A model generated the notes under the pieces. The model searched no databases. It worked only from the letters and a program-made list of their open reading frames with translations, and was not told the DNA's origin. Positions 1 to 29,800 of a stretch of 64,000 nt of DNA are shown in pieces (positions within the stretch are counted from its first letter, which is position 1; every line of letters begins with the position of its first letter). Origin of the DNA: Amphiscolops sp. MND2022 (lineage: Eukaryota); the NCBI GenBank assembly GCA_964187785.1, contig OZ076412.1, forward strand, positions 27,032,001 through 27,096,000, given 5' to 3'. The position numbers and the translations under genes are program-made.

Positions 1-39
1 ATTTTCCGATTTTTAAAGTTTTCATGCAATTTTTGTCTT

Positions 40-830
40 GCAATGGCTTTGAATGTTGAAAACGTTCAAAAGGTAAAAATTTAATTATCCAAAAATTTAG
101 AGGCTGTTTCGAAAAAATAAATGCAATTTTTTAAATTTTTTGACCGAATTTGAATAAAATTCCAAAAAGTTCAGATTTTTAACGTTTTTATGCAACTTTT
201 GTCAATTTTTTTACACTTGGTAGCTTAGTTTTTACACTTTTTACACTTGGAAAGTTAATAACGTCAGCAAGGAAATAATTCGTTGTCCAAGAGGCTTCTT
301 CGAAGAGATAAAAGAAGTTTGTTTTGAAAGAAAAACCTGCAATTCAGACCGAAATTGACAAAAATCCCAAAAATTCTGATTTTTAAAGTTTTCATGCAAT
401 TCTTGTCATTTTTTACACTTGGTAGCTTAGAAAGTTAAAAGCGTCAACAAGGAAATCATTCGTTGTCCGGGACGCCTTTGTTAAGAAATAAACGCAGTTT
501 GAAAAAAGCTCAAATTGCGACTAAAAATCACAAAAACTGCAAAACGTAACAGTTTTTCACGTTTTTGTCCGAGAGATTTCATGAATCATAACATTGAAAA
601 CGTCCAACAAAGAATGAACTCGTTGTCCAATAAGGTTGTTTGGGTAGATAAATGCTGTTTTGTAGAAACAAAAATTGCCACAATGACTCAAAGTAGTAAA
701 AATTTCAGTTTTTGATTTTCCCGCGGAATTTTTGTAAATTTTTCAACTTTTTCATAGATTTAACGTTTTTAACTCAGAAACTGCTAAACAACAACTGAAT
801 TCGTTGTCCAGTAGGTTTTTTGATGGGATA
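40..830. repeat. Degenerate tandem (satellite-like) repeat, ~160-180 bp period
   Basis: The motif aacgt..acaa....aattcgttgtcc recurs near 260-290, 440-470, 600-630 and 780-810, with similar flanking text (ttttcatgcaa..ttttgtca, cacttggtagcttag). Confidence 0.6.
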
Positions 831-5800: not shown

Positions 5801-8800
5801 ACATCCATTCTTTTGATGTTTTTGAAGATTTTAAAAAATTGAAGGGGGACTCTTTAGAGACATTGAAAATTTTCGGAAAAAGTCTCACAAAGCCGAAAAA
5901 GAGGGGAAAGTCCCAGGAAGAAGGTTCCTAAACTTCCAGAACAGGATTTGGCTCTATAATCTGAAAGAAAATCCTAAATAGGAAGTAGAATAATGTTATG
6001 AAGAGTACATGTGTGTTTGTTGCAGTGAAGAAGAGCAAAGAGAGTCTGGTGAGTGTGACGGGGGCAGGGGCCAAGAGCAGCCAGGAGGACATGTCTGCGG
6101 AGGAGCACGAGGCCAAGATAGCCGAACAGAAGCAGAAGCAGCAGGAACTCATATCAGGTACCAGCCAATGTGAAATGAAAATGTGTATGTAGTAGGCCCA
6201 TGTTCAAAGAAATTGACAAATTCTTTTCTAATCTGAAAAACCTAGGAAATATTTTATACTTGTTTGGTTCTTAGCAGAATACTGAAGCGACATTGACGCG
6301 GGCTGTCAATTTTTGGCTCAGTTTGTAAAGGTTCGATTGGGTTTAGGAGAAATTAGCCTTCTGAGATTCTTGATCAATAGTGTTTAGGAGTTAGTTTGCG
6401 ACTATGCCGCCTCACTGGTCGCACCAGTTTGTAAAGGTTCGATTGGGTTTAGGAGAAATTAGCCTTCTGAGATTCTTGATCAATAGTGTTTAGGAGTTAG
6501 TTTGCGACTATGCCTTCCTAAACCTTTACAAAAGTTGTCTCTAGGTCTTCCGAGTTCGCAGGAAGGACTTTGTTTCGAGAGAAGAGTTTGAATATATGAA
6601 AAGAATTTGAATTAGTTCGAGTATTATATTCAACAATGTTTGTTTTTACACAATACGCAAGAATACAATACAAACAAAATAATGTAATCATCCAAGTTGA
6701 CACAAATATCCAATCAATAATATCTGAATTGTTTAGCATTCACCACAAATAAATACATCAATTATTTAGGGAGCAATGTTCAGGTAAGTTGTGTAAGTAC
6801 TATAAAAACTGGAATTTTCTGATCTTATTGTCCAACAATTTGGTTAGGACAAGTGTGCTGACTTTTGACCAGAATTACAGTCTATTCAGACCGGTTTGGG
6901 GTTCCTAGAGTTCTCAACAATGTAGTGAGAGTTACTAAGTCTATTGACAATTTACGTGACAGGTTTGTCACACGTTCTAGCTTATAGGAAGCGAAGAACT
7001 AGCTTATAGGAAGCTGAGAGTTAAATAAAATAGTTTTAGCCTATATGACCAGCCAATTACTAGGTCGAAGACAGGATTGTCTTGAGCATAGACTTATAAG
7101 AAGTCTTGCGAATCTAAGTAAATTAAGGGTCTTATCTAACCAGCATTCGCTAGGTTTTTGTTCGGACAAGATTGCCGATTGGGCTCGATCCAGAGGTTCG
7201 GTGCCGTGTTCTAAGAGTTTTAACCTATTGCAATGGACCAGCAAGTTTGCTAGGTCGAGAGGAAGACAAGTTTGTCTAAAGACTTTGAAGAAGTCTTGTG
7301 AGTCTAAGTGAGTTAAAGGCCTTATTTCAACCAGCAGTTTGCTAGGTTGCTTTTTAGACAAGATTGTCAGAATTCTGTTCAATACTTTATAAGGTTACAT
7401 GCATTTTACTTTTTAATCAGTTTGTTTTACTTGCAAGTTAGCTGCAGTTATTGAAATGATCTAGACTAGCAGTCGCTAAGTCTTGACGCAATCGCGTACT
7501 AAGAGGAAAGTGATCTCCGTCGAGAATTGTTTGGGAGCGTTTAGCTCTAGTTAGTTTTCCCTATGATTTTCATAGGAGAACCTTGTCGGTTGTTTGTCTC
7601 TTCAGTCACTAGGACTGGGGGTTGTCTATAAAAGACAGGTAGGAAAAGGGAGCAAAGAAAAAAGAGAGAAATTTTGAGTTGTGAATTTTGAAGTTATTTT
7701 CTAAGTTAAAGAAAATAACTAACCTGAAGTTTGAAGCAAAGATTGGGTCGGAGAGATTTGTTCTCGCAAGAGAGAGATTTTTTTGAGAGAGATGATTTAT
7801 AGCAGAGGCGAAGAGGAGAGTCAGAGTGAGAGTGTGTGAGAGATTTATGCGAGAAAATTATGAATCAATTTGCTAGAGTCCGGCTTTTTTATACGAGCCG
7901 ACCGAACGGTACAACCAATCAAATCGATTGGCGTTTTTCATTGGATACGAAATTATTTCGTCATTATCTCGTCAATATTTTGTCCATAATTGGAATCGCA
8001 TTCACTATTGGATGCAACCGAATAGAAGTCGGCGGGGATTGCATCAGCTACCGAATATGTTCGGCTAACCGAGTTGGCTGACGCAACTCTTTGTATTTGT
8101 CAGGGGAATTAATCCTCTCAAGTGGGGGACTTTGTTCCCACTTGAGAATTCTTTTTGTTTAAAATTGAGAATTTGGCCGTACAAGTGGCGCCTATTATTC
8201 TCTTTTCAGAGATATTTACTGGCACAAGTGGCGTCGCATATTGTCTTTTTCAGGGGAGATAAAAGATAATTGTTTGCACAAGTGGCAAGCGTTTTCTTTT
8301 GTAGAGGGGAATTCTCCCTTTCATATGACGCGCAGCTGTAATTTTGTTTATCTCTAAAATTCTTTCAAGCGTGCCTGGAGAATTGAAAGAATTTGAGTAA
8401 GAGTTCACAAAAATTGAATAAAAAAAAATTCTAGCTCCGATTGAATAATTTTCTAAATATGTTTTTTTCAAATATTAAATTGAAGAAAAAGTTGTGTTAA
8501 ACACAACAACTCACCCGGGGTTTAAGAATGATTAAGTTGAAAGGGGGGCATACAGGGTATTTATGACTTTTACTTCGAAAAATATGGAATTGTTTTTTAG
8601 CCAGGGGTTCTCTGGGTTCATGAGTTCATCATGTGGGATGAAGCACAAGATGGTGATTGCTGTATTGCTGGCTGTGGGAATAGGTTTCTTGAAGCACTCA
8701 CTGTTGTTGTTATTCGTCACAATGAGCTGTTTGTAGGGTTTGTAAATATTGCCTTGACCAAGGAGGTGTATCTCGATAACGCCTTGGAAGGGCCAAGTGA

Positions 8801-11800
8801 GTATCTCATCGTAGGGTCCCGGACACATAGCCAAGCATACTGACATGTATTTCCCTTTGGCAGTGTCGATGCCATAAGGATAAGCTCGTAGATGAAAGGT
8901 GTACCCAAAGGGTTGTGAGAAGAAGATAGGGCTACAGACGTCTTTTAGGCAATTAGGATCACAATAGGGTGCTCTTACATGAGACAAACTTTTTTCGTAT
9001 TTTTCAGCATTCTGAAAAATATCAGAGAATTGATCAAGCCTCCAAATAACTTTGTAGAGGTTCCAATCCCGTGGAATTGATTTCTTTTCGATACGAAGGA
9101 CTCGCATCTCAAGTGCGTCGAGCTTTTTACTGATCTCGTGTATCATATCAGAATCAAATGTGTCATCTTTATATTGGGTGATATTGAGTTTTTGTCGAAG
9201 CAATAGTAACTCATTGATTAGGGAGTCCGTAAGGGACCTCTCATCTTCCAATTGTTCAATAAGGGTAGATGAGCTTGTGTTCATCCTGATAGGTCGTTCT
9301 GAAATTCAATGGAAAAGACTTTAAATAAATGCTGAAATAGCTCTAATAGGTACCACAATTCTCTGGTAGCCTAGGGTCGGATTTTCCAATGTAAATTCTT
9401 GACGGTTAGAATCCCAGAATACAATATTCCAATGATTATATTCGCGTTTCAAAAGATAATTTAATTCGGTCCGGAATCGTGGGTTCCTGGTGAAAATATA
9501 TTTATTAGCAGCTTCCTCGTTTTTTCGTTGTTGTCGTAGTTTTTCGTGAGCCGAGAGGGAAGCTTTTTGCCTTTTGTGAGAACGCTTGATGGACGTTGAA
9601 TGAGGTCGTTTAGTGGGTAGAGGTGTTGTTTTTAAGTTGTTGGGCGGAGGAGGTGGTGCTGTTTCAGTAACACCTTCTGCAATAGTTTCCGTTGAGAGAA
9701 ACTCTAAATCTGTTGGGGAAAGCAAGGGGAGATCAAGTAGTCCGCTGTTGTCGAGTTTTGGTTCACCTGTTAATAACTCGATTTCTTCAGCCACAGTTTT
9801 GTCGGTTTGCATATTCTGAATACTAAACATAAAAAATACAATTACACTGGAGAAACAGTATGGGTATTCGAAGTAGGGGGCCTACTTATGGCAGGGTAAA
9901 TGTGTTCGAGGGTTTCGTGCTCATTGTAATTTTTGTCTGGAGGGGTATCTGAGACCATTGGGTCATGTTGGGGAACTTGATTAAGTGTTGATATCATCGA
10001 AACTGTGAATAGATTGTAGGTTGCTGATAGAAGTATTTTGCCAATACCCCAAGAAGCTCCTGTAACTCGGTGTAGTTCAAATGAGCGAAATGTTATAACA
10101 ATCACGTTGACCAAAAACTTGATAAGAAGAAATCCACCAAACCACTGTCCCAATTTGCTAAACCAGTATTCGATAATACCAAAAGTGCTGATGAACTGTT
10201 CCTTGAAATATCCTGGTGATATCATGTTATCCACATAGAAATTTGTACGTGGTGCAAAGTAACCAAATTCGTCTGGTCCTTTGTCGGCAGCCGAAGGTAT
10301 AATGAGTTCTCGTGAAAACTTTTGCAAAGCATTCCTCGAAGCCGCGCTGATCAGAATATTGTCCCAAAAATCGCTGAGTTGTCCTTTTGTGTACATTCCA
10401 GCATCTTGAGACTCATCGAAAGCATCTTTTGTGAAAGGAGAAATCTCTTTCGGACCGAAGATAGCAGGTCTATCTCTATGTGTAGGCTCTGGATTCAAAG
10501 AAAACCAAGAGTCCTTGTCCTGCATATCTAGTTGAAAAAGGTTCTTTATTCTGTCTGTGCAATTTTGGGTATTTGCGTTGGGGTAGGTTTGTCTGGTGAT
10601 GGGGTCTACGAATTGAATTTGTCCCTTGTAGAATATGGGTATTTTGTCATAACAATTGTTCATGACATGAAGAGGTGATGAAATCAGTGGGCATGAATAG
10701 AGCCAGGCGAGACTACCATCAGTTTCAAGGAACATGGATCTATTTCCAGTAAGCATGTATCCAGCAAGGCGTGGATTTTCCAAAGACAGCATTAAAATAG
10801 TTAGAATTTGGGTCCGTTCCTGTTCGCACTGGTTTTTCAACATTTGAATTTCGGAAGATTGCAGTGCTCGGGTGCTTTCGAAGAACAGGTAATCCAGTTT
10901 TGTTCCAACTTGCATTTCATAATCCATGTTGAGCCAAGTATTAACGTACTTGTCTTTAACTGTGGCATCTCTGTTGTACACGTAAAGTCCAGGTTTCCCA
11001 GAATTGTCTGTGGAGTATTGGAGGGTATAAGATCCTCTTGTTATCCCCATCTTTCTTCCGGAAGCCATGTCAAATCCACCGGTATGTATCACAATGTACA
11101 TGGACTCGTAATTTGTGGGATATACGTCGTTTGGTTTGTTGCAGAATTTTTGAGGGTAGTTCTTCACTTCGAACAAAAATTTGGAGGAAGAATCGTTGGT
11201 GCTCACCATGTGATACCTGTGTTCATTCTTTATCATATTTACATGTTCTTCTTTCAATACTGAAAGTACACAGTTATCAGGGTGATCCCAAATATAGGCG
11301 TAGGGATCCAAGGATGTGCTTTGGCAACCCAGATCGTCAAGTTTGCATGGGAGAGGATTTCCATTTACATTGTGAACTGTTCCATCTCTCAGCTTGACGG
11401 GTAGTGTAACATCTTGAATGTGACTCTCAAAAGTATCTTTGATCATCCAAGACCTTCCAGTGCAATGGTTTCTGTTTTCTTCGCTCTTCTTTCCATTCGT
11501 ATAGGACTGAGTTAGTTTGTTTCCCTTTTTAAACTGGACCATGTGATCCAATATTTGTATCTTTCCCTCTTCTCGTGCTCTTCGACATTGTTCGGGGCTC
11601 ATATCGATATCGCTAGTTATTGTACTTTGTTCTGCATCGATACTCGCATGGTCATGATATCCACAATGCCATTTGAATCTACTGTGCTTTAGGCGGCACA
11701 TAGTGGCATTGAGTTCTGTACGAAAGTGCTTCGTGTAGACAGTGATTATGGCTGGGTTGATTTCAATATTTTCTGGGGAAACGTGGCAGGGTCTCACTTG

Positions 11801-14800
11801 ATTGAGCGCATATAATTTGTTTTCGGTCATTTCTCCACAGTCATAATGCGATACACTAAGCCTTTGTGCGATGTCATCCAGGTTTGGATTGGGGAGGCCA
11901 TTGATTAGGGAGTAGCACGTAATGAATAATATCAAAATTTTACTGCACATTTTGGAACTAACTGGGAGAAATCTTAGGTGTTTGCCAGAGCTCAGTTTTC
12001 AGCAAACTGTTAAGAAAAAATCAAAAAGAGGAAAGTTAAACGGTAGCTTGCTAACCGAGAGTTGGTGGAGTCGAATTTGACAACCAGTTAGAATCAAATT
12101 GATTCTATTGTTGAAGAATGTTCTTCAGAAACGAGAGTTGGTGGAGTCGAATTTGACAACCAATTAGAATCAAATTGATTCTGTTGTTGAAGAATGTTCT
12201 TCAGGAACTGAAACGAGACAATTATTGCCTAACGTTTTCAACCAGGGTGAACACCGAATTTGTATTTGGTAGCTTGCTAACCAAAAATAGGTGTAGTCAC
12301 AGTGATCACTGCTTTAGATTTGAGATTGGTGCACAGGTCTATGGATTGAAGATTTCAGTGTCTGGCTCAATTGATAGCCGTTTTCATAAGTACTGAAAGT
12401 ACACTCTGTTATCAGAAGTGAAGTTATGGAATTTGGGATTTGAAGTGAAAGTTGAGAAAGAGGATCGTAAAATTTTATTTACCAAACAAAAATTTATTTC
12501 AAAACGGAAATGAGATGAAATTTACAAATCATAAAACTGGATAAGATCCTTGTACAATTTGCTATATTTAGGTGAAGTGACACACTCAATGTCCATGACA
12601 CTGGTTAATTCACCTAACACAAGCAGATCAAATTTGGTGATGTGCCTTTCAGGCTTCTGTTCGTATGACAGGAGGGAAGCGGCTAGTGACGCGTATAGAA
12701 GGGTGTCCTTGTAGATTTGTTTCTGATACTTTTTGTCAGGCAGGTCGTAACGTTCAAAGTGAACGCAAATCTTGAATTCGTAGGTCCAAGTCCACCGAAT
12801 ATAGGTGATCAAAAATTGTTTGTTGTTTTCAGCAACGAAAATAGTCCAGGGGCAATTGAAACTGAGTTCTTCGTACTTTTTCTCCCAGAGGGTATCCCAG
12901 TAAATAGTAGGAGGAGGATAAATTTGAGTAATCCTCGGTTTTGTTCTTTTGCGTGAGTCTTTTTTGAGAATAGACTGTGGGTTCATTAGAGATGGTTGTT
13001 TTCTCCTCTGAACAAATCCGAAGGTATGTCTCCCACAAATTTCATAAGGTGGAGAAAATAGTCCCAATATACTGAATGTTGATCTACAAAAACAATATCT
13101 TTTTTCGAGGTGATGTAGTGCTTTACATAGATATAGATTCTGTCTTGATGCAGCTCAGTTCTATAGATCCGGTAGAATTCGTTTTCAATTTTGATGTAGG
13201 TCATACGACGAACTGAAATAGTCAAAAGTTTTTTACCCACGGCAGAGATTGATACTATGATCGTTACCGTGCTGAAAAGTTATTTACCCACGGCAGAGAT
13301 TGATACTTTGATCGTTACCGTGCTCGTTTTTGTGAAAAATTCTTTACCCACGGCAGAGATTGATGCTATGATCGTTACCGTGCTGAAAAGTTATTTACCC
13401 ACGGCAGAGATTGATACTTTGATCGTTACCGTGCTGAAAAGTTATTTACCCACGGCAGAGATTGATACTATGATCGTTACCGTGCTGAAAAGTTATTTAC
13501 CCACGGCAGAGATTGATACTTTGATCTTTACCGTGTTCAATTTTGTGAAAAAGTTATTTACCCACGGCAGAGATTGATACTATGATCGTTACCGTGCTCA
13601 ATTTTGTGAAAAAGTTATTTACCCACGGCAGAGATTGATACTATGATCGTTACCGTGCTCAATTTTGTGAAAAAGTTATTTACCCACGGCAGAGATTGAT
13701 ACTATGATCGTTACCGTGCTCAATTTTGTGAAAAAGTTATTTACCCACGGCAGAGATTGATACTATGATCGTTACCGTGCTCAAGAATTTCTGAAACGAA
13801 GGACTACAAATTAGTTATCAGTTTACGTTAAAATGACAATGAAGAGAAGAGAAAAAGAATTTTGACAAGAAGACTTTTATTTACAATATTAGAAATCTTC
13901 CATTTCCTGCCACAGCTTTAGAGTTTCAAGGAAATCAATGTACATATCATTGTAGCTCGATTTTTTACAAACATTGTCCATCTGGCTAGAGATGGTGTTG
14001 AGAGCGTCGACTTCTTGTTTTGATAGCTGTGGTTCGGGTTTCCTCATGAACGTTACTAACGCCGCAGTGAGGGACGCATAAAGGAATGAACCGGGTTTGA
14101 CCCATTTGTGGTATTTTTGTTTGGACCGGTAGTTATGGAATTTAACTTCTACATCAGCAGTTGGGTGCCAACTCCAACTTAGTTCGTCGATGATCATCGA
14201 GATTTCTTCTAATTCGGGCATGATATTCCAGGGGCAGCATTTGAAATTTATTTTGTTTATAATCACAATAGGGATGTCGTACGCAATGACAGGCTTCATC
14301 TTTGGTTGGCTTGGGCTGAAGTTTGGTCAAAATAGATACTAAAGCACGAAAATGCTGCTTGACTTACTTGGTAAAATTTAAACAAATTTTACAATTGCAA
14401 GAGCTGGATTTTTCAAAAAGCAAAATTTCATACTATTGTTTTTGTTCTTTTCACAAGGTTCTCCTTTAACAAGGCTTTGTCTTGTTTTCTTTTGTTTGTC
14501 TACTTCTTTTGTTTCCTTTTGTAGTCTTTATTGAATAGATTCTTGCATTCTTTTGTTTTCTACATGCTTTTGTTGTTACATGCAGTGGTTCCTTTTGTAA
14601 ACTCCTTTCAGTTGTTGACTTTTGTTTTTCGTTTTCTATGGTTTGCATCACTGGCTTTCATCGGCTTGTTTTGTAAAGATCGCGCTTTTGTTGTTGGATA
14701 ACGGCGGGTGCCATATGTGTTTTTGAAGTATAGTGTTGAAGTTAGCTTTGTATTGAATGCGCTTTTGTTATGGTTCAGTTCTTTTGGTGCCATGTGTTTT

Positions 14801-17800
14801 CGAGTGGTTTGAAAAGTTGTTTGTTCACAATGTGCTTTTGTAATGGTTCAATTCTATGGACGCCATGTGTGTTTTTGAAGTGGTGGCCCAAATTCGGTTT
14901 GTGTTGAATGCGCTTTTGGATGTTATTCTGATCTCTTCACATTTACAAGTAAGTTCGGTTTTCATTTTCAACTTTTGCTTTTTCTTGAATTTTTGGTAAC
15001 GTGTATATGACACGCTCGACCGCCGAAAAAGAAGTAGAGAAAAAAGTTTGAGCCATATGGTGGTGAAGCTTGGAGAGAAAGAAATGAAAGAAAAACAATT
15101 TTGAAGAACGGAGTGGAAAATGGGGGAAATTTTTAAACGGCATAAGGGGGGTGGTGAAAACGAAATTTGAGGTTGTAATTTAGTTGCGTTTCTTTAGGCT
15201 GTTTAGTACACGATGAACCGTTTGCCATTTTCTACCGCGGATGATGCTTATCTGGCACCAGATCTTTTTGCGGATATGCGATCATTGGTGACTGATTTGG
15301 AACTACCAATGATGGCGGGGACGACAGCGGTGGGCGAGGTGTTGCGACGCCCAGAACCACTCCGGAGAGCAGTGAGATTGGCGTTAGGCGAGCACGTAAG
15401 TTGTTGAGTGGTGTAACTTTTGAAGCTAAGACATTGTGGAGAAGAGATTTTGAATTAGTTCTTAGCACTAAGAGTAAAAAGGAAATGGAAAGTATTGTCT
15501 TTAGCTTCGATTGTATAAGTTCTGTAGTTGCAGTTTCTAAGTACGATAAGGTAAACAGAGACGGAATGTTTGTGAAATTAATGTTTTTGTGTATTGATTG
15601 CAGTTTGTTTTAGTGGAGATCGAAGCTACAGTCCGGAGCCAAGGACGTTTGGATTTTTAAACTAAAAGCCATTGTACGGGGATGGGAGATGACTGCTCCA
15701 CAAGATCGGCCGGACATAGCCCGACGGCTGGATCGGAGTCAGTTTTTTCAAGTGCTGCAGGACTTGGCGGAGTTGGGGGGATATATGGTGTGCCTCTGCG
15801 CGGGGCATCCTAAGCCGCCTCCAAATGGGGCGACTGTTGTCCCTGCCGAAAGGGAAGATTTATTATAAACTTTTGTTTATATTGTAAATATTTTGTTTTT
15901 GTGTTTTTATTATTTTAATATTATTTTTGTAATACTTCTGTTTTGACTTTAAATTGTAGGTTGAGAAGTAAGAGAACGTTTTTGACAGTTATAATTTCTA
16001 AAAGTTTAGCTAGAGGAGAAGGATTAGCTAAAACTTTGAGGAATCGCCTCCGTGGAGGCTTGTTGATTAAAACATCAACAATCACAGTGCTATCTATTCC
16101 AGGCAGTTCGACCATTTAAGGCGAACCGCCATAGCACAATTTTTCTTTGTAGTTTTTGTCTCTTGGGGAGACTTGTTGGCGAAAAACCGTCAACAGTCAC
16201 AGTGGCATCTATTCCACGCAGTTCAACCATTTAAGGTGAACCGCCGTACCACAAAATTTTTGTTAACAGAGTTTGTAATTAGGTGATATAAAAATGTCAA
16301 ATTTTTTGAAAAGACAGATGATCAAAAATCCCGATCCAAGAAGTTGTAGGTAACAAGCATGTGTACTGATTACAATTTCCAATAAGGCTGGGGAATTGTC
16401 CAGTGTTATTCGGGGCCAAAAAAAAGGACCGAAGAATTTGGGATTCTGAAATAAGGGTTGACACAATTTTGTACACAATTAAGGTTTTTTATCGGGGGGT
16501 AATTCTGTCCCTGTGCCTCATGACGCAGAGAATGGTGTGTAGTATCCAAATTATGTAGAGCTAGTGTTGTGAACTGAAAAGGTAGATCAGGATTTTGGCG
16601 GGACTTAGTATTAATTGATGTAATAAATGCTAGTGTTATCATTTATTTTTTAATCTTTATAGCCTTTTCTCTCAATGTCTCGGAGGGAACTGCCAGGGGT
16701 GCTTCGTTCGTATTTGGGGTTTTTGGGTTTTTCGGAAAACCGTGTAGTTACCTTCTTTTTGAAGTTAGATAGTTTTCCTGTTTTTGGGGAAACTTGATCA
16801 GGGGGAGACACTGTGTGGATTGGAGGAACGGATGGGAGAACCGGTGTTCTCTTGGGTAGGGGAGTGTTAGAAGAGAATGCGAGTGGTAAGACTGCCACAG
16901 GGAGACGTGGTGTTTGCATAGGTGGAAGTGGATTTGTTCCACAGCTTTGAGGGATACGTTCCCTTAGAATGGAATTGTTAGACGTAGATGGGATCGGGGT
17001 GTGAAATTGTGGGGTTTTCGGAGAAAGGATTCCAGAATCGGTACTGGGGGAAAATTCAGAACCCTTAGAAGTATTGTTATTCGATCCTGAAAGTGGAGTG
17101 ATAATGAGTGGCATAAAATCTAGTTTATGCTCAGGTTGTCCCGAGTTGTGTTTGTCAATTTGAGTTTGGACCAAACGCTTGTAAAAATTATCGTCCTGTT
17201 CTACAGGAGCGTAATTTGTCAGCAATGGGGGTAAAGTTTCCTCTTTGGGAAAATACTCTAGTAAGTGGTTTCGGTGAGTTACTTTAACATTTTCGGGGTT
17301 CTCATCTTCTTTAATCTCGTATGTGGTATTGGTTATTTGTTTTGTTACCGTGAAAGGTCCCACTCGTAATTGTTTCAATTTCTGTGATTTGGATAGGTCG
17401 GGTTTGTGATTCTCCAATAGGACCTTTTGACCAACCGCGAGCGGTCGTCCTAGTTTGAAACGGTTCCGATACTCATGAGCTTTCGATGTGATCTCTCTAC
17501 ATCTTTTGTAGGTAGATGAGTATATTGATTTGAAGTCGTTTTCTCTTGTAAGTAGTTCGGAAGATAACTGTGGTCTAAGGAGTCGATCGAGGGACTTGTT
17601 TCTGAGGTTATTCTCACTATGGGTGTGAGGTTGTAAATCTGCACAAAATTCTGATTTACATTGTTTGTTTTTGTCGCGAATTAGCCCAAGTTTCAAAGTC
17701 ATCGGTATTTGAGGTTTGACGCCGAAGACAATCTCGTAGGGGGTCATACCCGTTGTGTAATTTACGCTTGTGTTATGGGCAAAAGCGAATTTAGATGCAA

Positions 17801-20800
17801 GTGTTGACCAGTTGTTTCCTGACTCGTTGGTGAAATTCCTCCAGTATCTCATGAGGTGTTTGTTTTGGACTTCAACTTTGCCATTTGTCCAGGGCGAATA
17901 AGCAGTGCGCGGTGCCAGCGTTATTCCGAACTCTTTGGTCCAATTTACAAAATCGCGGTTGATAAACGCTGAGCCATTATCGTGGACAATTTTTTGGGGA
18001 ATGCCGTAGGATGTGATCCATTTTTCTAGGGCATTGATTGTGGTCTGAGCTCCTGTATCTCGGACCGGATAGACTCCAAGAAATCTTGAGAATGCATCTA
18101 CTACAACTAGACAATGTGTATTCAGGTTACTGCTTGGTCTGATGGGACCTTTGTGGTCGATATGGATTGTTTTGAAGGGGGTTGTCTCGAGTTCGCCCCA
18201 TTGTTCAAGAGGAGCTTCTTGTAGATCGTGTCGTTTAGACTTGTTAGTCTGGCATTGTAGACAATCTTCTATCAGGGATACTATCCACTTATATCGTCCA
18301 GGCCAAAAGAAATTTTGTCTGATGTTTTCGAATGTTTTAAATATGCCTGGGTGGCCACTGTGAGTATGAGCGTGGGCCAGATTAAAGAGGGGTAGGAATA
18401 ATGATAAGGGGACACAGATTTTCATTTCGCATTTGTCCGTCCCATGAATAGGTTCGTTATAGCAGAGTAGGTTGCTTTCTTTATCGAGAAAAAGTTGATT
18501 GAAATTGTTGAAGTACGACAGCAAAGCCTTCGATTGGTGAATCTCTGGTGTTTTGGCGTTCGGCTTATTCTTGTTTCTAACCCAAGCTCGTACAATTTGT
18601 AATACAGGATCGTTGATTTGTTCTGCAACTAAGGTGGTGATGTCCAAATCAGCGGTTTTAGAGTAATCGCTGAGTTTTTGTAAGAGGTCTTTGGTATCAA
18701 CGTGTGGGAATTGCTCGACATCTAAATTCTTGTTCAATAGAGGCCTTTCACTTTTCTGTGAAATGTTCTTTTCTTTCGCAGTTGATTTATCGCGATAGAA
18801 CTCGTGATCTTCGTTGGAAAGGTGAAGTTCGGCGATTTCCTCTTCATCGTCACTGGAATCGGTTTCGATGTCGTCTATTCTACTATACTCGGGTTCATAC
18901 TGTATTTTGTATGAGGGTAGACAGAGGTTTTTGTATTGATTGATGGATTTTCCCAGTTTGAAACAGTCAGCGATGTCTTGGCGAGTCGCCATTACTGTTT
19001 GTTGGTTCTCATAGTGCTCTACTTCATGTTCTTCTCCGTCATTCTTGAGATGGAGTAGCCTTTGATCTTTGCCTTTTTGGCAGAGGATAGGGAAAAAGTC
19101 ATTGCTGCCACAATGACCATCGTCATTATGCTCGATTGCATAGTGTACTTTCGATCCAAATTCATCATAGAAACTGATATCTCGCGGTATTTCTTTGTGT
19201 AGTTTTTGTAAGTTTTGGGTTTCTTCCAGCGTGACATTTCTACTAAGTATGTCTGGGAATGCGAGGTTGGATCCTTTAGTCCAGATGATTTTGAGGTTTT
19301 GGAACTTGGTGATGATTACCTGATACTTGAAAAAGCGATGTGAAAGCTGTCCTTTTCTTCCCCAGAGGTATAAAATAGGTTTGTGATCGCAATAGAGGTA
19401 TATTGGAAATGGAGATCCAATAATGTAGTGTTCGTATGTTTGGAGTGCTGATACTATGCCACACAATTCGCGATGAAGGGTGGACATCTTTTGTTCAGCT
19501 TTGTCAAATACGCGGGAATTGAAAGAAACTATCCTTTTTCCTTCTGGAAACTGTTGAACTAGTATACAACCAGTACCAACGTTCGAAGAATCGACGTGTA
19601 TGTGGAAGGGGTACTCAGTTGAAGGGACAGCAAGAATAGTGTCCTCACATATACGACTTTTTATATCAGTGAAGAGGTCTTCGTGTTCTTTCGTCCATTT
19701 GAAAGGCGTTGTAGCTTTTATCAAATCGTAGAAGGGCTGGCTATCCACGTGTAAGTTTTTGATATAGCAACTGTAAAATCCAAGACAGCCAAGTACTTTC
19801 ATCACATCTCTTTTACTTTCGGGTGATTTTAAGTTTTTTAGATCCTGTACTCTTTTTGCTAAGGGTTGTATTCCTTGTTCAGAAATAACATGTCCTAGGA
19901 ATTTGACTTTCCTGATGAAGAAATTCGTCTTCTCAGGTGCAGCTTTAAGTCCGGCTTTCCTCAGGAGCTGATGGTACTCATGAATTATCGTGAACATTTC
20001 TTGTTTGGTCTGAGCCTGCATAAGACTGTCATCAAGATAGGTGATAGCTTGTTTTCGCTTGATGAGGGGCTCAAAATGTATAGCCATGAGACGGCTAAAA
20101 AAGTTTGGAAGTCCACAGAGTCCGTAGAAACCACGTACATACGTGTACTGTTTTCCGCCGATAATAAAACTAGTGAGTTTTTGGGTCTCGTCGCTCAAAG
20201 GTACTTGGTGATATGCGCAGGATAAATCGCTGACCGTGAAGTACTTTCCGTTAATCCGAGTCATAATCATCTGAATGGGATCCAATGGCCATGAGTAATT
20301 TGTCAGATCTGTTATGGAATTTAAGTAGCGGGCGTCGATTACTAACTTTACGTAGTCTGCTTTGGGCATCAGAATGATCGGATTGACAAAAAGGGAACCT
20401 AGTTCGTCATCGTCTCCCATTTCTCTAATGATATCGGCTTCTTGGAGTTGTCCAAGTAACTTCTCAAGTTTGTCCTTCAAGTGAAGGGGTACTTTGCTTG
20501 GTCGTTGTTTCTTGAGTTCTGAATTGGCTTTGAGTGTTACGTGAAATTTTTGACGTACTTTTCCCACGTCGAATTTGTGTTGCGAATACACGTCTGCTGA
20601 GTCAATAAGCATATCTATTAGGACAACCAATTCTTCATCTTGGAGGTCAGTATATCGGAAATCGAATTTTTTCACATATTCCTTGATTTCTTCACGCTGA
20701 TATTGGAGGTAGTATTCTATCAAAGCGTCGTTATCTTCTTTTGTTCTAAGTTCAACAAATTGTTCTGTACAGGGTGGCTGACAAGATTTAGCGTCCGTAG

Positions 20801-23800
20801 CAAAATCTGTTTCAAGTTCTTCAGTACCATTAGCAAATTGTTCTGTATAATAGTCAATATCTCCTTCTTCTACTTCTTCTTTTCGTATGGAAGCGTTAAC
20901 AAGTTGGAGGTTCGGTTCGTTTCGTGATACGATCTCGACTTTAATATGTCCATAATCGAAGCTGTTACGGATTATGTCCAAAGCTCCTTTCCAGTGGATG
21001 TTATCTAAGCCATCTTCAATTTTGGGTATTGAAATTGCAGGTATATTGTTTAGTTGTGCGTGTCCAACCAAATTTTCGATGCAATTGCGAAAATCTTCGG
21101 GTTTAATTTTTTCGTAACATCTCTTTTTTGCAACTAGTCCATAGATGAAGCGATTGGCTTCGTTATCCCAAAAGGGTAAAACTGATCCGACGAAAGGTTT
21201 CGACTGGTTCACGAAATTCTGAAAATCTTTCTTCTGTTCGCACAACCTTTTTGCGAACGTGGTTGTCATTTTTCCATCTGCTGAGACACAAAAGGCTAGA
21301 TTTGCATTTGAGGCTCGAAGGGTCTCGCCGGAGCCGTGGCTTAGAAAAACTTGTTGATCTCCTTCGTGTTCGAAGGGAACTGTTGAGTGTAGCAAGAAAC
21401 AGTCGTTGTAGTCTGGGTTTTCCTTTAAAATTGTGTTGACCATCGTGACACAATCCTTTATCTGGAACTTTGGTCGTTCTTTTTCCTGTAGGTCTATGAC
21501 AGCATGACCAATTATTCCTCTATTAAGGGTTATTTGGTGATTTCGATTATTTTCAATCAAAATTGGCAGGTGGGATTCGGACTTCGTACATAAAACATTC
21601 ACAAAGGTAAGTCCTGTTTTGACTGCATTTTTGTGGGGTGTGAATGATGTTCCGGGTGCAAAATGTCTGTTATTTTCGCGGGAGTACTTGTGTAGGCGGG
21701 TAGTTTTGGCATCGATGCAAATTGGGTTATCTGTTCGTATTGTTTCGACCTTTGAAACGTACGGGAAGGGTTTGGTAGCACAAAGGTTACCGTAGCAAAT
21801 CGTGTTAGGACTGTCTTTCAATTCGATTGCAGGCAAATCAAAATGTAATTTAGAAACAAGTTGACGGCAGAAATCTATTCCCAGTAAATTGGGTGTCTTC
21901 GCTTCTGTTATCCAAAACTTTAGCTCTACAGGATGGAGTCCATCCGAGTCGAAACTGAATGTGATTGTTGTTGATCCAAGCATCGGTATAACTTCGCCAG
22001 TATAGGTTTTAGTCAGCTGTTTGCTCCTGACTACCGTGATGGGTTGTCCAAACTGTGCAATTTCCTCAAAAGCTCTGTAATTGATGATTGAACAGGCTGC
22101 TCCTGTATCTAGCATGAATTCTATTTCTAACCCACTATCTTTTTTGGAGTCTCCGGTGGGAAAAAAGAAGAGATTTAGGTGAAAACGTGATTTGAGGTTA
22201 CTTTCTTCGTCAGGTCGCGGAGACTTTAGCAGTTTAAAGGGTTGAACGAGATTGTACTAACTCTGTCCTGTCCTTCTTCGTCAATGAACTGTACGGAGTT
22301 TGGGAAACTGTTATTGTTGGTTGGGAAATTTCGGTTGTACTCAGAATTTGTGTTTTGTGGTCGTGCACTGAAGTTATACGGGCTATTTGGCCTATTTCCA
22401 GTATAGGGTGTATTGTTTCGCAAATTGGTACTAGTCGAAGTTGGTCTACTACCTGAAGAGTGATTGTTATTGCCACTGAAGTTGTTGAAGTTGTTCGACT
22501 GCTGAGGATTATTTCGGTTCCAGTTTTCATTTCGATTGTTCCCTTCGTTAGGTCTGCCTCTGTTGAAGTTTTGGTTCGACTGTTGGTTGCTTCTTTGATT
22601 ATTGGTGAAGTTCGGTCTTGGTGAAGACTGATAATTTTGTTGTGATCCAAATCCGGGTCCCTTCCGTTTGTTGTAGTCGTTGGTGAAGGTGACCTTCTTC
22701 TCTTCATTAGCTCGTGATTGTGCTCTCTTGGCTTCGTCATCGTAGATCTTCTTTCGGCAATATTGGAGTGTATGACCATTCCTTTGGCAATATTTACAAA
22801 ATCGTGTGATGTTTTGGCGGGACGTGTTATTTACGTCTACTGCAGAGACGTGATAGTCATGACAGTGAGAGGATGGGCATCCGTAGGGTAGGGAGTTAGT
22901 TACAGCTAAAGAGTTGATTTGTTGTTCTTTTAGCATATTCTTCATTGCGTTGATGTCTTCTCGTAGTTCGTTTATCAACGTTTTTTGGTTTTGTGAGGAG
23001 TTCGGAGCTAGTTGAGAGCTGATAGTAAAAACAAGGTCTTTATTAGTTACGTGTTCCTGAAATTGTTCCCAAGTAGCGTTGGGGTGTTCAATTAGGTATT
23101 GGTGAGCCTTGTTCTTTAGTTCGTTGGGCGTTAGTCCTCTGACTGCAAATTCAATGTACTTTTGCCTTCTTTGAGCGTTCAGTGCAGCTCTAGCTGCATT
23201 ATCAGCATTTTCTTCGTCTGGCCATCCTCTATCGACAGCTCGTTTCACTCGGTGAAAGTAGTTCTTTATTATTTCTTCATTCCCTCTGACACTGTTTTCT
23301 GCAGTTATTCTGTATCTGTATTTATCTCTATTGTCGGAAAAGCGGGTTAGGAAATGGGTTCTAATATGTTGCCAATCGTGTCCATCTCCTATGTTGTCTG
23401 TATACCACTCGGCGGCAGGTCCTCTTAGTAGGGATGAGAAAAGTGCTTTTTTGCGAAATAAGTATCTTGCTCGATCGTCATCATTGTCGGGTTCATGGCC
23501 CATCGAGAAATTGATTTTGTTCTCAACAGTTGTGAGAAATGATCTGACATCTTGTTCGGGGTCGTTTCCTGAGAATTTGTCCAAAGCGAGGTCGGGAAAT
23601 GAAACTGTGTTATCTGCCATTCCTCTCTTTTGCTTGAATGTGCCTCACTGGTCGCACCAGTTTGTAAAGGTTCGATTGGGTTTAGGAGAAATTAGCCTTC
23701 TGAGATTCTTGATCAATAGTGTTTAGGAGTTAGTTTGCGACTATGCCGCCTCACTGGTCGCACCAGTTTGTAAAGGTTCGATTGGGTTTAGGAGAAATTA

Positions 23801-26800
23801 GCCTTCTGAGATTCTTGATCAATAGTGTTTAGGAGTTAGTTTGCGACTATGCCTTCCTAAACCTTTACAAAAGTTGTCTCTAGGTCTTCCGAGTTCGCAG
23901 GAAGGACTTTGTTTCGAGAGAAGAGTTTGAATATATGAAAAGAATTTGAATTAGTTCGAGTATTATATTCAACAATGTTTGTTTTTACACAATACGCAAG
24001 AATACAATACAAACAAAATAATGTAATCATCCAAGTTGACACAAATATCCAATCAATAATATCTGAATTGTTTAGCATTCACCACAAATAAATACATCAA
24101 TTATTTAGGGAGCAATGTTCAGGTAAGTTGTGTAAGTACTATAAAAACTGGAATTTTCTGATCTTATTGTCCAACAATTTGGTTAGGACAAGTGTGCTGA
24201 CTTTTGACCAGAATTACAGTCTATTCAGACCGGTTTGGGGTTCCTAGAGTTCTCAACAATGTAGTGAGAGTTACTAAGTCTATTGACAATTTACGTGACA
24301 GGTTTGTCACACGTTCTAGCTTATAGGAAGCGAAGAACTAGCTTATAGGAAGCTGAGAGTTAAATAAAATAGTTTTAGCCTATATGACCAGCCAATTACT
24401 AGGTCGAAGACAGGATTGTCTTGAGCATAGACTTATAAGAAGTCTTGCGAATCTAAGTAAATTAAGGGTCTTATCTAACCAGCATTCGCTAGGTTTTTGT
24501 TCGGACAAGATTGCCGATTGGGCTCGATCCAGAGGTTCGGTGCCGTGTTCTAAGAGTTTTAACCTATTGCAATGGACCAGCAAGTTTGCTAGGTCGAGAG
24601 GAAGACAAGTTTGTCTAAAGACTTTGAAGAAGTCTTGTGAGTCTAAGTGAGTTAAAGGCCTTATTTCAACCAGCAGTTTGCTAGGTTGCTTTTTAGACAA
24701 GATTGTCAGAATTCTGTTCAATACTTTATAAGGTTACATGCATTTTACTTTTTAATCAGTTTGTTTTACTTGCAAGTTAGCTGCAGTTATTGAAATGATC
24801 TAGACTAGCAGTCGCTAAGTCTTGACGCAATCGCGTACTAAGAGGAAAGTGATCTCCGTCGAGAATTGTTTGGGAGCGTTTAGCTCTAGTTAGTTTTCCC
24901 TATGATTTTCATAGGAGAACCTTGTCGGTTGTTTGTCTCTTCAGTCACTAGGACTGGGGGTTGTCTATAAAAGACAGGTAGGAAAAGGGAGCAAAGAAAA
25001 AAGAGAGAAATTTTGAGTTGTGAATTTTGAAGTTATTTTCTAAGTTAAAGAAAATAACTAACCTGAAGTTTGAAGCAAAGATTGGGTCGGAGAGATTTGT
25101 TCTCGCAAGAGAGAGATTTTTTTGAGAGAGATGATTTATAGCAGAGGCGAAGAGGAGAGTCAGAGTGAGAGTGTGTGAGAGATTTATGCGAGAAAATTAT
25201 GAATCAATTTGCTAGAGTCCGGCTTTTTTATACGAGCCGACCGAACGGTACAACCAATCAAATCGATTGGCGTTTTTCATTGGATACGAAATTATTTCGT
25301 CATTATCTCGTCAATATTTTGTCCATAATTGGAATCGCATTCACTATTGGATGCAACCGAATAGAAGTCGGCGGGGATTGCATCAGCTACCGAATATGTT
25401 CGGCTAACCGAGTTGGCTGACGCAACTCTTTGTATTTGTCAGGGGAATTAATCCTCTCAAGTGGGGGACTTTGTTCCCACTTGAGAATTCTTTTTGTTTA
25501 AAATTGAGAATTTGGCCGTACAAGTGGCGCCTATTATTCTCTTTTCAGAGATATTTACTGGCACAAGTGGCGTCGCATATTGTCTTTTTCAGGGGAGATA
25601 AAAGATAATTGTTTGCACAAGTGGCAAGCGTTTTCTTTTGTAGAGGGGAATTCTCCCTTTCATATGACGCGCAGCTGTAATTTTGTTTATCTCTAAAATT
25701 CTTTCAAGCGTGCCTGGAGAATTGAAAGAATTTGAGTAAGAGTTCACAAAAATTGAATAAAAAAAAATTCTAGCTCCGATTGAATAATTTTCTAAATATG
25801 TTTTTTTCAAATATTAAATTGAAGAAAAAGTTGTGTTAAACACAACAAGTTGTGTCTCATTCTTCATCGAAAAAGTTACTTTTATCTTTCTGAGTTCAAT
25901 TCATGTTCTTTGAAATTAAACTACAAGAATATTTTATCCAATTACAGTGAAAGATATTGTTCAAGATCTCGAAATAGCGTGATATTTCTACCAAAGAAAC
26001 CTTTGAAGAAATTGAGAAATACTTTAAGGTTGCTTCTGTAATTTTGAACGTTGTTTCTGCGGAGGGGTACATCGATGTTGAAATCCACAAAGGGAGTCTT
26101 TTCAGATGTATAGAAGAGAATGTATACTTCACTGACAGTAAACTCGGATTTTTTACTTGTTTGTATTTAATGAAATCAGTAGTCACAAAAATTTTTGATT
26201 GCACCTTGCTGGGCTTCTAATTAGCGAGAGGTGTTGTTTCATTTCCATGTAAGGAAATACATGTATTGTCATTCTAATTCGTGATACTATTTTTGACCGA
26301 ATGCGTTCATTTTAAAATCAGCCTATATTTGTGTTTGTACTTATTTACACTCCCTTTTCCCCTAGTCTTCTCTACCTCCCGAGCATCTATAAAAAGAAGG
26401 AAAAACGACCTCTTTCTCTATTCAACTCAATCGTCGTCGACGCAAATTTCAATTTAATCCCATTTTCTCCTTCGTTCCGTCTTGTTTTACGGTGACGTAA
26501 ATGTACATCCATATTTGTCGCATCGGTTTCGCTTTCGTGTCGTGATTAGCGGCATTGGTATTAGCAAGCTTAGCCGATTTATGAAGTAATTGGCTTTGGG
26601 TACACCGAAAAAGTGATAGTATTACGTCATTGGGGTTGGATGACGTCAGCAAAGGATGAATGGGATAAAGGAAGGAATGAAAATAGAATTGTGAGTGGGA
26701 GAAATTCCCCAGAGTTGAAAAACAGTGAAATGAAGTGGATGCTAAGGTAGAACATCATGGAATGGTGACGTCACGTACTTCCACATCACGAATTGAGTGT

Positions 26801-29800
26801 GGCTCTCAAAAGCAGAAAGTTGTGACACAAATAGCATTGATTCACCTCAAATTGAAGATCTTGGAATTCTAAAGTTATCAAAAGATGCTGTAAAAATATT
26901 TCACATCTAATAAAAGACAGTTTTTGAGTTTATTCTAGCAGTCAAATAAAACTTAGCTGATGACTGGCAGGATTTTGGTGGTGGAAAATGAGAAATTTTA
27001 AGTGGGAAAAATTAATTAATTAATGTACTTTTATACGCATCAAACAATTGGAGAATGGTGTTTTGCACTACAGAGTACAGCATAGAAATGTCTCTGGTAT
27101 GCTGAAGTTGACTTCAAACAGGTTGCCTGATTTGAAGACGTTTTCACAAAACGTTGCAACTGAAACCCTCTTTGCCTGAAAGAACCCATCTGGCCCAGGA
27201 CAACTTGCTGTCAGTGTAGGGAGGATATCGGAACCTATGGTTGGCCCCTTCCACCAATCGTGTGGGTACCTCCATACAAGACTTACCATGAGAAAAGGCA
27301 TCAAAGGAGAACTTGCCATGGTAGCAGCCGGTGCCACTTTCTCCCACGCCACCGAAGGGCAAAGAAGGCAAGCCTCCTTGTAGCATTGCGTCATTGGCCA
27401 CAAACATACCACAAGTTGTAGAATTGCGCCATGCATCAATGGTTGACTTGGCGTTTGTGAAGACGTATAGACTCAATGGTTTGGGCTTGGTCTGCACAAA
27501 ATTGATGGCCTCGTGTAGACTCTCCACTGGCATGATGGGCAGAACTGGCCCGAATATCTCTTCCTGCATACACTTCTGACTTTGTTTGGCGTTTGTTATA
27601 ATTGTAGGACTGATGTACCGCTTGCTTTTGTCACGTCCTCCTCCATAAAAGATTTCCACGCCGTCTTCCGTGAGAAAAGATTCCACTCTGTCGAAATGTC
27701 TTTCGTTGACTATCTTCCCGTAATCTGGCGAGCTTGATGCATCGCTGGTGTAAAAGCTATCGATTACTTCCTTCAGCTGATTCTTGAGCTTTTCCTGAAA
27801 TTGAAACATGAGTTGATGCCATATTTAGGAAAAAGAAATGTGAATTAAGAATCGGTATAAAATATACGTCGTTCAAAAATAGAATTCCAAAAAACTGTAC
27901 ATTTCTAATGATATGACCGCAAGTTTTGATATCCTATTCTTTTCTGTTTATTTCATATACATGAAAGACATGGAAAGTGACATGGAAAACCATATTTAGA
28001 AGCTTAATTTTTAAAAATAGCCAGTTTTTGCTCCCCCTAGTATGGCGAACTATTCTATGCAAATAATTAGTGTATCTTGGTTTTTTTCTAAAATACCAGA
28101 AACAAAGGCAATTTTTATTCATTTGCTTGTAGAATTGATTTGGTTGAGGATTCAGACTAATTGATTAGTTCAGTTCGAGGTGGAAAACACAAACCTGCAT
28201 TTCTTTTGAGCACAATACGTAATCAGGGGCAATACAAGTCTGTCCACAGTTGACCAACTTGGCCCAGGCGAGTCTATTAGCTGTTATGGTGAGATCTGCA
28301 TCATCTGCCACGTATACTGGACTTTTGCCTCCCAGTTCCAAAGTAACGGGCGTCAAATATTTGGCAGCCGCAGTCATAACTATCTTTCCCACGGGCGAGC
28401 TTCCTGTGTAGAATATTTTGTCAAACTGCTGCTCCAACAGAGCCGTGGTCTCTGGTATACCCCCTGTGACGACTTTGAAGCATTCCTCGTCTAAGTACTT
28501 AGGTACCAGTTTCTCGATAAGCTCCGCAGTGGCTGGTGCCATTTCTGATGGTTTCAGTATTGCGCAGTTACCGGCTGCGATGGCGCCCACTAGCGGCAGG
28601 AAGGTGAGCTGCACAGGGTAGTTCCACGCGCCAATGATCAAAGTGACCCCATAGGGATCTTTTTGTATATAGCAAGACATGGGTTTGTACAACAGAGTTT
28701 TGGAAACATACTCAGGTTTCATCCAACTGCTAACGTTCTTCACGGCATGCTCGATGTCTGTTTCGAGGATATCGGTTTCAAACAAAACTGCTTCCGCCCT
28801 GCATTTGCCCAAATCTTTTCTCAAAGCCTCCACGAAATCGCTCTCATTTTTGGTAATGAGTGTTTTCAAGGCCTTTAGTTGATCTTTTCTGAAAGATTCA
28901 GTTTTCGTGCGCCCGGTTAAGAAAGCGGCCCGCATAGACTGTACCAGTAATTCCATATCTTCTTTCATTGCTAGGATGCTAGCTGATGTTGTGTGTTTGA
29001 ATTGGTATGAAAGCAAGAAAGCAACTAGTTTCAGACTTGTGAGACTAATAAACTGAGTTCTACGCCAAAGTACGATCACAGGACAGAAAATGTACGTCAA
29101 CTAAATAGTATTCTGGTGCTATTTTAAGATACACTGAGATGCTAGTTTCTATTGCTTGGATATTTCTCACTAACAAGAATTTAATCTACTGAATATTTGC
29201 AATCAAATCTACAGCTGAATGCGATCTAGAGAGTCAATGGCTAATGCCTTCGGCACCACTTCTGTCTGATTTCATTATGGTATCATTTGGATGCTTGCAA
29301 AGTGTGCATAATCTGCGGACTTTGTTTCATATTTTGTAAAGGTTTTATTTCACATCAGCCCAAGAGGTCGTTCCAAATTCAGCTGATCGTGGATAAGGTC
29401 GTTAGAAGAATATTTGGAACTTTTCAAAACTTCATTTTCAGCTCTGTGAGTAAATGTTCTGAGGATAACCTCAATGAGTTCGAAATATGCAGTTGAAGAT
29501 TTTAAACGTGAAAACAGCCCAATTTTTTTATGATTCATATGTTGTATATTTTAAAATAAATTCTCAACCTTGCTCTCATAAGAATTTTTAAAATAGTAAT
29601 TCAAAACATATTCTTCACTTTTGGTCAAGAAAACCACTTGCTAAGGTTTTGAATATTTGTTTTTATGGGACCGTTATTAACACGGAATAGGCTCTGCAGT
29701 TTGCAGCGTATATGACACCCTATTTTTCTCAGGCATGGCCTCACTGCAACATGGGCATCCCGGACGGTTTCTTTTTCAACATGAACTGGGTTTCAGTACG

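Follow-up and report, generated by a model that had tools for sequence, protein, structure and literature searches.

A TARG1-class macrodomain with a remodelled ADP-ribose pocket within the Pol polyprotein of a Ty3/gypsy retrotransposon from Amphiscolops sp.

The window analyzed here is a stretch of 64,000 nucleotides from Amphiscolops sp. MND2022 (contig OZ076412.1 of assembly GCA_964187785.1, positions 27,032,001 to 27,096,000; assembly size 1.07 Gb). It contains a complete Ty3/gypsy long terminal repeat (LTR) element on the minus strand at 6324-25847 (19,524 bp), with open reading frames (ORFs) for gag and pol and four more ORFs. The 5' LTR (23663-25847, minus strand, TG...CA ends) and the 3' LTR (6324-8508, minus strand) are each 2185 bp and showed 100% identity over 2191 aligned bases; a 4-bp target-site duplication (6320-6323 and 25848-25851) flanks both. 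The identical LTRs, their TG...CA ends and the duplication indicate a very young insertion. The pol ORF (16650-22256, minus strand) encodes 1868 amino acids (aa) without stops: protease, spacer, macrodomain, reverse transcriptase (RT), RNase H, integrase and an SH3-like C-terminal part. The order of protease, RT, RNase H and integrase identifies the element as Ty3/gypsy, and it is the macrodomain of this Pol with which we are concerned.

The initial annotation had placed a TARG1/OARD1-type macrodomain at 20925-21345, in frame within Pol between protease and RT, and the ORF map, sequence search and structural comparison all upheld this. Those positions, read on the minus strand, are residues 304-444 of the uninterrupted Pol ORF. 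The segment we analyzed (20907-21371, minus strand; Pol residues 296-450, folded core approximately 302-445) lies after the aspartyl protease and is separated from RT by about 110 aa. In a phmmer search of PDB sequences, human TARG1 (C6orf130) supplied the only significant matches (five of six rows, E 3e-11 to 4e-11; the sixth had E 0.63), and no MacroD-type sequence was matched. A profile of 11 element domains found TARG1 at E 5.5e-42 and DarG at E 2.7e-10. Pfam Macro fell below its cut-off on the segment (E 0.0034, 17.7 of 22 bits) and gave no match on the whole Pol, so routine annotation overlooks the domain; an atlas comparison also returned Macro (score 0.95).

An AlphaFold2 model built on an 83-row alignment (predicted local distance difference test, pLDDT, 84.9) was used for structural comparison; a single-sequence model (pLDDT 37) was left unused. 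TARG1 was the best Foldseek match (E 9e-12, template modelling score 0.80) and ranked first by VIA-align (Z 21.3, root-mean-square deviation 2.0 Å, 146 residues aligned), followed by DarG at 19.1, with alphavirus macrodomains at about 14, below TARG1, DarG and Poa1p. The Pol domain is thereby confirmed as a TARG1/OARD1-class (ALC1-like) macrodomain and not a MacroD-type one, which bears out the earlier distinction from the coronavirus and alphavirus class. Because intact relatives supply the alignment on which it draws, the model shows the fold and is silent on the state of the pocket.

The element belongs to a family, hereafter family A, with many copies in the host genome: 33 of 40 scored DNA matches were at least 98% identical to it. 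Of the best 150 of 918 candidates in a protein search, 33 had 97-100% identity and about 80 had 41-44%, with older relatives between them at 63-93%; the group at 41-44% is a sister family, B. Family B has a Pol of 1853 aa with the same layout and likewise carries env and MATH-domain ORFs. When 106 scored matches were split by RT, 42 fell to family A and 64 to family B. A look-up of RNA runs covering the pol region listed none, an outcome with no bearing on expression.

Numbering follows TARG1 in PDB entry 4j5q, whose chain runs 7..152. The phmmer alignment equates Lys82 and Asp123 of the 155-aa segment with TARG1 Lys84 and Asp125, the catalytic pair described for this class (PMC7050489 and PMC9411070, accessible parts). 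Both had been reported as retained, and both are present in all 16 intact family-A copies: the Lys codon (21126-21128, minus strand), within LVAKKR from 21137, is AAA throughout, and the Asp codon (21003-21005, minus strand), within GLD from 21011, occurs in two synonymous forms. The altered glycine-rich loops were also as first described. MTTTFA (21252-21269, minus strand, starting at 21269) replaces TARG1 MGAGIA, with Thr at the Gly43 position, and in the phosphate-binding loop EDGLD (21003-21017, minus strand, EDG from 21017) replaces GCGLD, with two acidic residues at Gly121/Cys122 and Gly123 kept. Four more pocket changes, at His32, Thr83, Pro91 and the GD motif, had been overlooked.

To place these changes we compared the pocket with 154 full-length homologous domains, drawn from 186 domain rows of the top 150 profile matches after exclusion of 32 partial rows. 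Word-indexed searches with the lone domain had found only near-identical relatives (1 of 112 candidates; 8 of 28), and profile searches were needed for this wider set. Six near-invariant residues proved to be replaced in family A: His32 (kept in 144/154) by Phe, Gly43 (147/154) by Thr, Thr83 (144/154) by Ala, Pro91 (141/154) by Ile, Gly121 (143/154) by Glu and Cys122 (133/154) by Asp, with neither that Ala nor that Glu found in any of the 154. Gly41 and the GD motif are also gone, and Phe replaces Ile44. The new residues were uniform in the 16 copies except for Met at the Gly43 position in two; in four of the 16 the Pro118 equivalent is Ala, a loss that marks subfamily A2. The canonical six-residue pocket is kept in family B and the insect Pols described below, and also in the five database relatives of family B, two of which depart from it at a single position. 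Asp125 and Gly123 were each kept in 149 of the 154 domains. The Lys84 equivalent was found in every one, visibly degenerate second copies included, so its retention says little about activity. Such second, degenerate TARG1-like domains stand beside an intact one in several database proteins (P0037 of Athalia rosae, P0056, P0098 and P0102); pseudo-domains of this class recur.

These replacements bear on the earlier proposal that the domain removes ADP-ribose and so shields the element's RNA, cDNA or proteins, perhaps now with a shifted substrate. An active eraser would agree with the retention of Gly123 and of the Lys/Asp pair in all 16 copies, with the intact fold of the model and with the purifying selection reported below; the host also has many PARP domains, and mechanism varies inside the ALC1-like class (accessible parts of PMC7050489 and PMC9411070). 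The same lysine persists in degenerate tandem copies, though, and six near-invariant pocket residues have been replaced, with acidic residues entering the phosphate-binding loop. Equivalent mutants are dead or weak: the TARG1 variants G43E, I44E and G123E lack both ADP-ribose binding and catalysis yet still bind RNA (PMC5928194, accessible part), and the activity of SCO6735 is lowered by a Glu placed in its phosphate-binding loop and abolished by His24Tyr (PMC9411070, accessible part), His24 being, to judge from motif spacing, the probable counterpart of TARG1 His32. We therefore consider activity unlikely, and the picture of an active eraser in the window element's Pol is probably wrong for family A. 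The protective role fits better the host families with a canonical pocket, B and the families C to E introduced below.

The pocket change is lineage-specific and occurred on the family-A branch. Between families A and B the macrodomain has the lowest identity in Pol (41.9%), compared with 87.9% in RT, 94.0% in RNase H, 87.7% in integrase and 52-62% in the linkers and tail. At columns where A and B differ, the commonest outgroup residue was kept by B at 27 and by A at 8 (binomial p 0.002; 70 outgroup rows); control columns in RT-RNase H gave 4 vs 7, a significant difference from the macrodomain (Fisher p 0.024). The stem leading to family A carried 1.14 changes per column in the macrodomain in a quick tree, vs approximately 0.11 for the whole A-B path in RT.

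A burst followed by stasis is the pattern expected for a change of function. It could mark an arms-race step in which the rebuilt domain became a new non-catalytic decoy or binder of a host factor, such as a helicase-PARP fusion, of which the host has at least six. The other host-facing ORF, that with the MATH domain, also diverges far more between A and B (27% identity) than env does (60%). Relaxed selection followed by a folding constraint yields an identical pattern, however, and positive selection is not demonstrable because synonymous divergence (dS) between A and B is saturated. A decoy seems to us quite unlikely.

Purifying selection has held the macrodomain since the subfamilies of A split. 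Between the window element and A2 it has accumulated 45.5 synonymous and 15.5 non-synonymous changes (dS 0.70, non-synonymous divergence, dN, 0.044, dN/dS 0.063), and third codon positions account for 43 of the 61 differences (p 3e-9). In the same comparison dN/dS was 0.04-0.17 in the linkers and tail and 0.005-0.02 in RT and integrase. The macrodomain is thus linker-like and lies above the enzymes, which suggests the constraint of a folded, non-enzymatic part. The family-B macrodomain gave a dN/dS of 0.18, on small counts (14 and 10 changes), and near-identical copies show 1-3 changes, too few to judge selection.

Values within the range of the linkers and tail would also suit a pure relic, with no function of its own, that persists only through its in-frame place in an essential polyprotein, from which mutations that disturb folding or break the frame are purged. 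The further loss of the Pro118 equivalent in A2 and a deletion across the first loop in one database relative (P0219) agree with this. A relic accords poorly with the lack of any length change, with 90% identity across a dS of 0.7 between the window element and A2, with a dN/dS lower than in the intact-looking family-B domain and with surface and loop residues that are fixed as well; we regard it as distinctly improbable. Six older family-A copies (L056-L061) carry a frameshift near domain residues 82-95, in or next to an A-rich run. Decay or programmed recoding was considered for this shared break and is less likely: the six copies break in both frame directions at or near the run (which was read in two), so slippage or read error is the more likely cause.

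The reading that we prefer, with about even confidence, is that the family-A macrodomain is a folded, non-catalytic remnant of an ADP-ribose eraser, retained for a structural or binding role. The ancestor of families A and B would have borne a working TARG1-class eraser between protease and RT. The gag ORF (22226-23644, minus strand; 472 aa stop to stop, Retrotrans_gag E 3.6e-05) overlaps pol by 31 nt in a -1 relation, and the overlap contains a candidate -1 frameshift site, CCCUUUAAAC (22232-22241, minus strand). Slippery sites for -1 frameshifting follow the rule X XXY YYZ. With UUUAAAC also present in family B, the -1 overlap and this site suggest that Pol is probably translated by frameshifting, as part of a Gag-Pol fusion. 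The ancestral eraser, translated in this way, would have entered the particle together with RT and integrase. Packaging with these two enzymes was what the initial annotation supposed for the domain at 20925-21345, and its place in the polyprotein suggests as much. In the ancestor, as in families B to E, the eraser may be found at the site of reverse transcription, where cDNA ends lie exposed.

Family A would then have had its ADP-ribose pocket rebuilt in a burst of change along its own branch. Glycines disappeared from the two glycine-rich diphosphate loops, a pair of acidic residues entered one of them, and other residues took the place of the His and the Thr next to the catalytic site. With a pocket so altered, the family-A domain has most likely lost the ability to bind or cleave ADP-ribose. 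It still adopts the macro fold and selection retains it, on this reading as a non-catalytic module of Gag-Pol that most plausibly offers a contact surface, or acts as a spacer, when the polyprotein folds, is processed or assembles into particles. Viral macrodomains retained after loss of activity provide a precedent (PMC10221186, accessible part).

Several observations weigh against this remnant reading. Family A keeps the equivalents of Lys84, Asp125, Cys33, Ser35, Gly123 and Leu124, some via synonymous changes, and the Gly-to-Thr replacement is milder than the Gly-to-Glu changes tested in TARG1. SCO6735 is active without the Lys/Asp pair (accessible parts of PMC9411070 and PMC7050489), and activity with a different residue set keeps an altered activity of the family-A domain in play. 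The linkers reach dN/dS values as low as that of the domain (0.063), which is therefore no proof of a function of the domain's own. A net charge of -1 and an isoelectric point of 6.6 lend no support to an RNA-binding version.

TARG1-class domains were found at three Pol positions in three deep RT lineages of the host genome. Besides A and B, family C (L041, 2772-7565, minus strand) has a canonical-looking domain between RNase H and integrase, and families D and E (L040, 2025-7409, and L039, 1439-7213, both plus strand) have one at the Pol C-terminus, after integrase. In an RT tree of 20 rows, A/B, C and D/E formed three deeply separated, fully supported groups whose order is unsure, since long branches meet. 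A quick tree of the domains, which bears on one vs several captures, left 20 of 38 inner branches unresolved. The initial annotation had allowed that a domain common and inactive in this clade would undo its reading; the domain is indeed common in the host genome's Gypsy elements, but looks inactive only in family A.

A sixth family, F (L038, 4926-7460, minus strand), has an 845-aa gag-protease-macrodomain ORF. It was considered as a second case of the protease-RT position and rejected: its domain groups with that of family C (Shimodaira-Hasegawa-like approximate likelihood ratio test support 96, quick tree) and about 29 kb around L038 contained no RT. Family F was therefore treated as a deleted C-like element and is probably a non-autonomous derivative that retained the macrodomain. 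An ORF just downstream of a family-B copy (L067, 1054-3021, minus strand) is Hsp70-like, an identity we presume from its N-terminus. Pfam Macro searched against the genome gave 24 matches among the best 150 of 294 candidates scored; apart from element copies these included three strong matches that are not TARG1-like, and no TARG1 gene of the host was located among them.

Outside the host genome, the element-domain profile found 7929 proteins at E 0.001 or better. From the top 150 matches 66 longer proteins were scanned, and eight bear retroelement domains; the other long matches are mostly cellular-type fusions (ligase III BRCT, NADAR, HMG, PNKP). Gypsy Pols with a TARG1-class domain between RNase H and integrase were found in Athalia rosae (XP_048515211.1) and Thrips palmi (XP_034249687.1), the latter in a second search in which 61 of 62 matches were unnamed ENA records. 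In this survey of Gypsy pol, as the initial annotation had advised, the protease-RT position appeared only in families A and B and in unnamed records 60-98% identical to these. A phage search gave three weak records.

The host genome also encodes potential writers of the modification. Among 41 scored matches, 32 were PARP matches, and six of eight long PARP-containing ORFs read (1829-2096 aa, single open frames) are fusions of a ZNFX1-like helicase of superfamily 1 with one PARP catalytic domain or two. These helicase-PARP ORFs lie on contigs C4, C8 and C13 (L070:1533-7475+, L071:1246-6918+, L072:806-7003+, L073:3253-9540-, L075:3838-9324- and L076:762-6398+). Two of the three PARP domains read have an H-Y-E triad, which we take to be the PARP motif. 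These fusions are a candidate family of RNA-sensing ADP-ribose writers. The word 'helicase' is absent from the PARP survey PMC4245714, and no dedicated literature search was made on such fusions.

Macrodomain counter-defence is established for positive-strand RNA viruses, with MacroD-type domains, and for phages; for reverse-transcribing elements our literature searches gave only a brief mention of fish retroviruses. A wider conjecture, tentative and in our view unlikely as a whole, is that ADP-ribosylation is an unrecognized defence against LTR retrotransposons in invertebrates. Helicase-PARP proteins would be its writers, Gypsy elements would have captured TARG1-class erasers at least three times or into three Pol places, and the family-A eraser would have become a decoy or binder. 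As far as pocket residues can tell, the counter-defence part appears to fit family B and the other families that keep the canonical pocket.

The spread of TARG1-class domains over three RT lineages and three places in Pol, and their presence in insects as well, suggests that the removal of ADP-ribose has repeatedly been selected for in retrotransposons. Families A and B form a pair, one remodelled and one intact-looking, that differ little elsewhere in Pol and so offer a natural experiment in the passage from eraser to pseudo-enzyme. The question raised is why several retrotransposon lineages bear such domains and what the remodelled one does now. If family A is merely dead and the other families do housekeeping, the result is a useful correction to annotation, since Pfam misses the domain, and no more.

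Among the remaining Pol domains, the aspartyl protease (21861-22133, minus strand) has LDTGA at residue 49 and matches Pfam Asp_protease_2 / gag-asp_proteas over residues 42-132 below cut-off (E 0.002-0.007). RT and RNase H (19257-20576, minus strand) match RVT_1 at E 2.7e-16 and RT_RNaseH_2 at E 1e-24, with YLDD at Pol residue 740, and the integrase (17262-18410, minus strand) comprises H2C2, rve and C-terminal parts. Between protease and macrodomain lies a conserved spacer domain of about 155 aa with no assigned family (21372-21836, minus strand), 61% identical to that of family B and with a dN/dS of 0.03 within family A. It had no Pfam match and 0 PDB matches, and its atlas matches were weak and to unnamed eukaryotic clusters; a dUTPase-like identity was considered and rejected on these results.

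A candidate primer-binding site (23643-23659, minus strand) begins with TGG, 3 nt past the 5' LTR. The LTR contains an exact 106-nt duplication of its own 3' end plus primer-binding-site sequence (23642-23853, 6319-6514), which gives the element extra copies of the priming site. The env-like ORF (9842-11998, minus strand; 718 aa) belongs to the chuvirus/gB-type fusion glycoprotein family (Monjiviricetes_fusion E 1.8e-39) and is 60% identical to its family-B counterpart (E 4.7e-39). With an intact gB-type env ORF inside its LTRs, the element belongs with the env-carrying Ty3/gypsy elements (errantiviruses in the broad sense, PMC13524379). Just before the 3' LTR, an accessory ORF with a coiled region and a TRAF-type MATH domain (8532-9305, minus strand; TRAF-mep_MATH E 7.7e-22) shows 87% identity in subfamily A2 and 27% in family B (L062, 6415-7566, plus strand); it is possibly a captured mimic of immune signalling.

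Two further accessory ORFs have no Pfam family. One (9321-9881, minus strand; 186 aa) is 74% identical in A2 and 57-58% over 86 aa in family B, and the other (12522-13154, minus strand; 210 aa) is 80% identical in A2. About 3.5 kb (13154-16650) separates pol from the first 3' ORF. Within this interval are tandem repeats (13221-13832) and a frame of 145 codons (13892-14326, minus strand), which is similar to the 12522-13154 ORF and shows 70% conservation in A2.

Elsewhere in the window is a BEL/Pao element (47247-55334, plus strand) that has several in-frame stops and LTRs of 678 bp with 99% identity to each other, together with a third, degraded LTR element that bears an integrase and repeats of about 190 bp (40061-45853). 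Host-like ORFs encode an aldehyde dehydrogenase in two frames (27144-29100, minus strand) and a glycosyltransferase family 61 protein (62490-63998, minus strand).

Our literature searches found no description of a TARG1-class domain in a Ty3/gypsy Pol, within a scope that left most subscription journals, Repbase and many supplements outside. Some retroelement proteins are annotated in domain databases as having Poa1p-like macrodomains. Given these annotations and the limits of the search, prior notice of such domains is likely. The main text of PMC6338049 mentions no macrodomain, the accessible part of PMC2774666 has nothing on macrodomains, and those of PMC7729036 and PMC11642819 have nothing on retroelement macrodomains. 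TARG1-like homologues have been noted in many viral genomes, few of them with all essential residues (PMC4245714, accessible part).

Known systems share parts of this arrangement. The env-carrying Ty3/gypsy elements with an HSV/gB-type (chuvirus-like) glycoprotein (PMC13524379) have the same gag-pol-env layout, to which the window element adds the Pol macrodomain and three more 3' ORFs, including that with the MATH domain; 'macro' occurs 0 times in the main text of that study, and the matches seen in its supplements (4 of 10; seven supplements) are species names. Macro-domain proteins occur in epsilon-like fish endogenous retroviruses (Basta et al. 2009, via the accessible part of the review PMC4977317), which by that review's description resemble family A as reverse-transcribing elements with a captured macro domain. 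The Athalia rosae and Thrips palmi Pols, recorded as 'uncharacterized', combine RT, RNase H, integrase and a TARG1-class domain in one frame, as does family A, but their domain, of which Athalia has two, separates RNase H from integrase and has a canonical pocket.

Alphavirus and coronavirus MacroD-type domains also place a macro fold within a viral polyprotein, and recurrent loss of activity is documented among them (PMC10221186, accessible part); they are of another class, with Z about 14 vs 21 for TARG1 and 9-15% identity. The macrodomain of the DarG antitoxin (5m31, 5m3e, 5m3i) shares class and fold with that of family A (Z 18.3-19.1), and the catalytic lysine is common to DarG and the TARG1 class (PMC7050489, accessible part). 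DarG differs in its bacterial toxin-antitoxin context and low identity (13-17%), and a Pfam scan of the element's ORFs revealed no partner toxin gene. Human TARG1/OARD1/C6orf130 (4j5q, 4j5r, 4j5s), which acts on ADP-ribose attached to acidic residues, nucleic-acid phosphate ends and thymidine (PMC7050489 and PMC9411070, accessible parts), is the closest relative in both sequence and structure and shares Lys84/Asp125, Cys33, Ser35 and Gly123. Unlike TARG1, the family-A domain is embedded in a retrotransposon Pol, has a nearly neutral charge and has replaced His32, Gly41, Gly43, Thr83, Pro91, Gly121, Cys122 and the GD motif.

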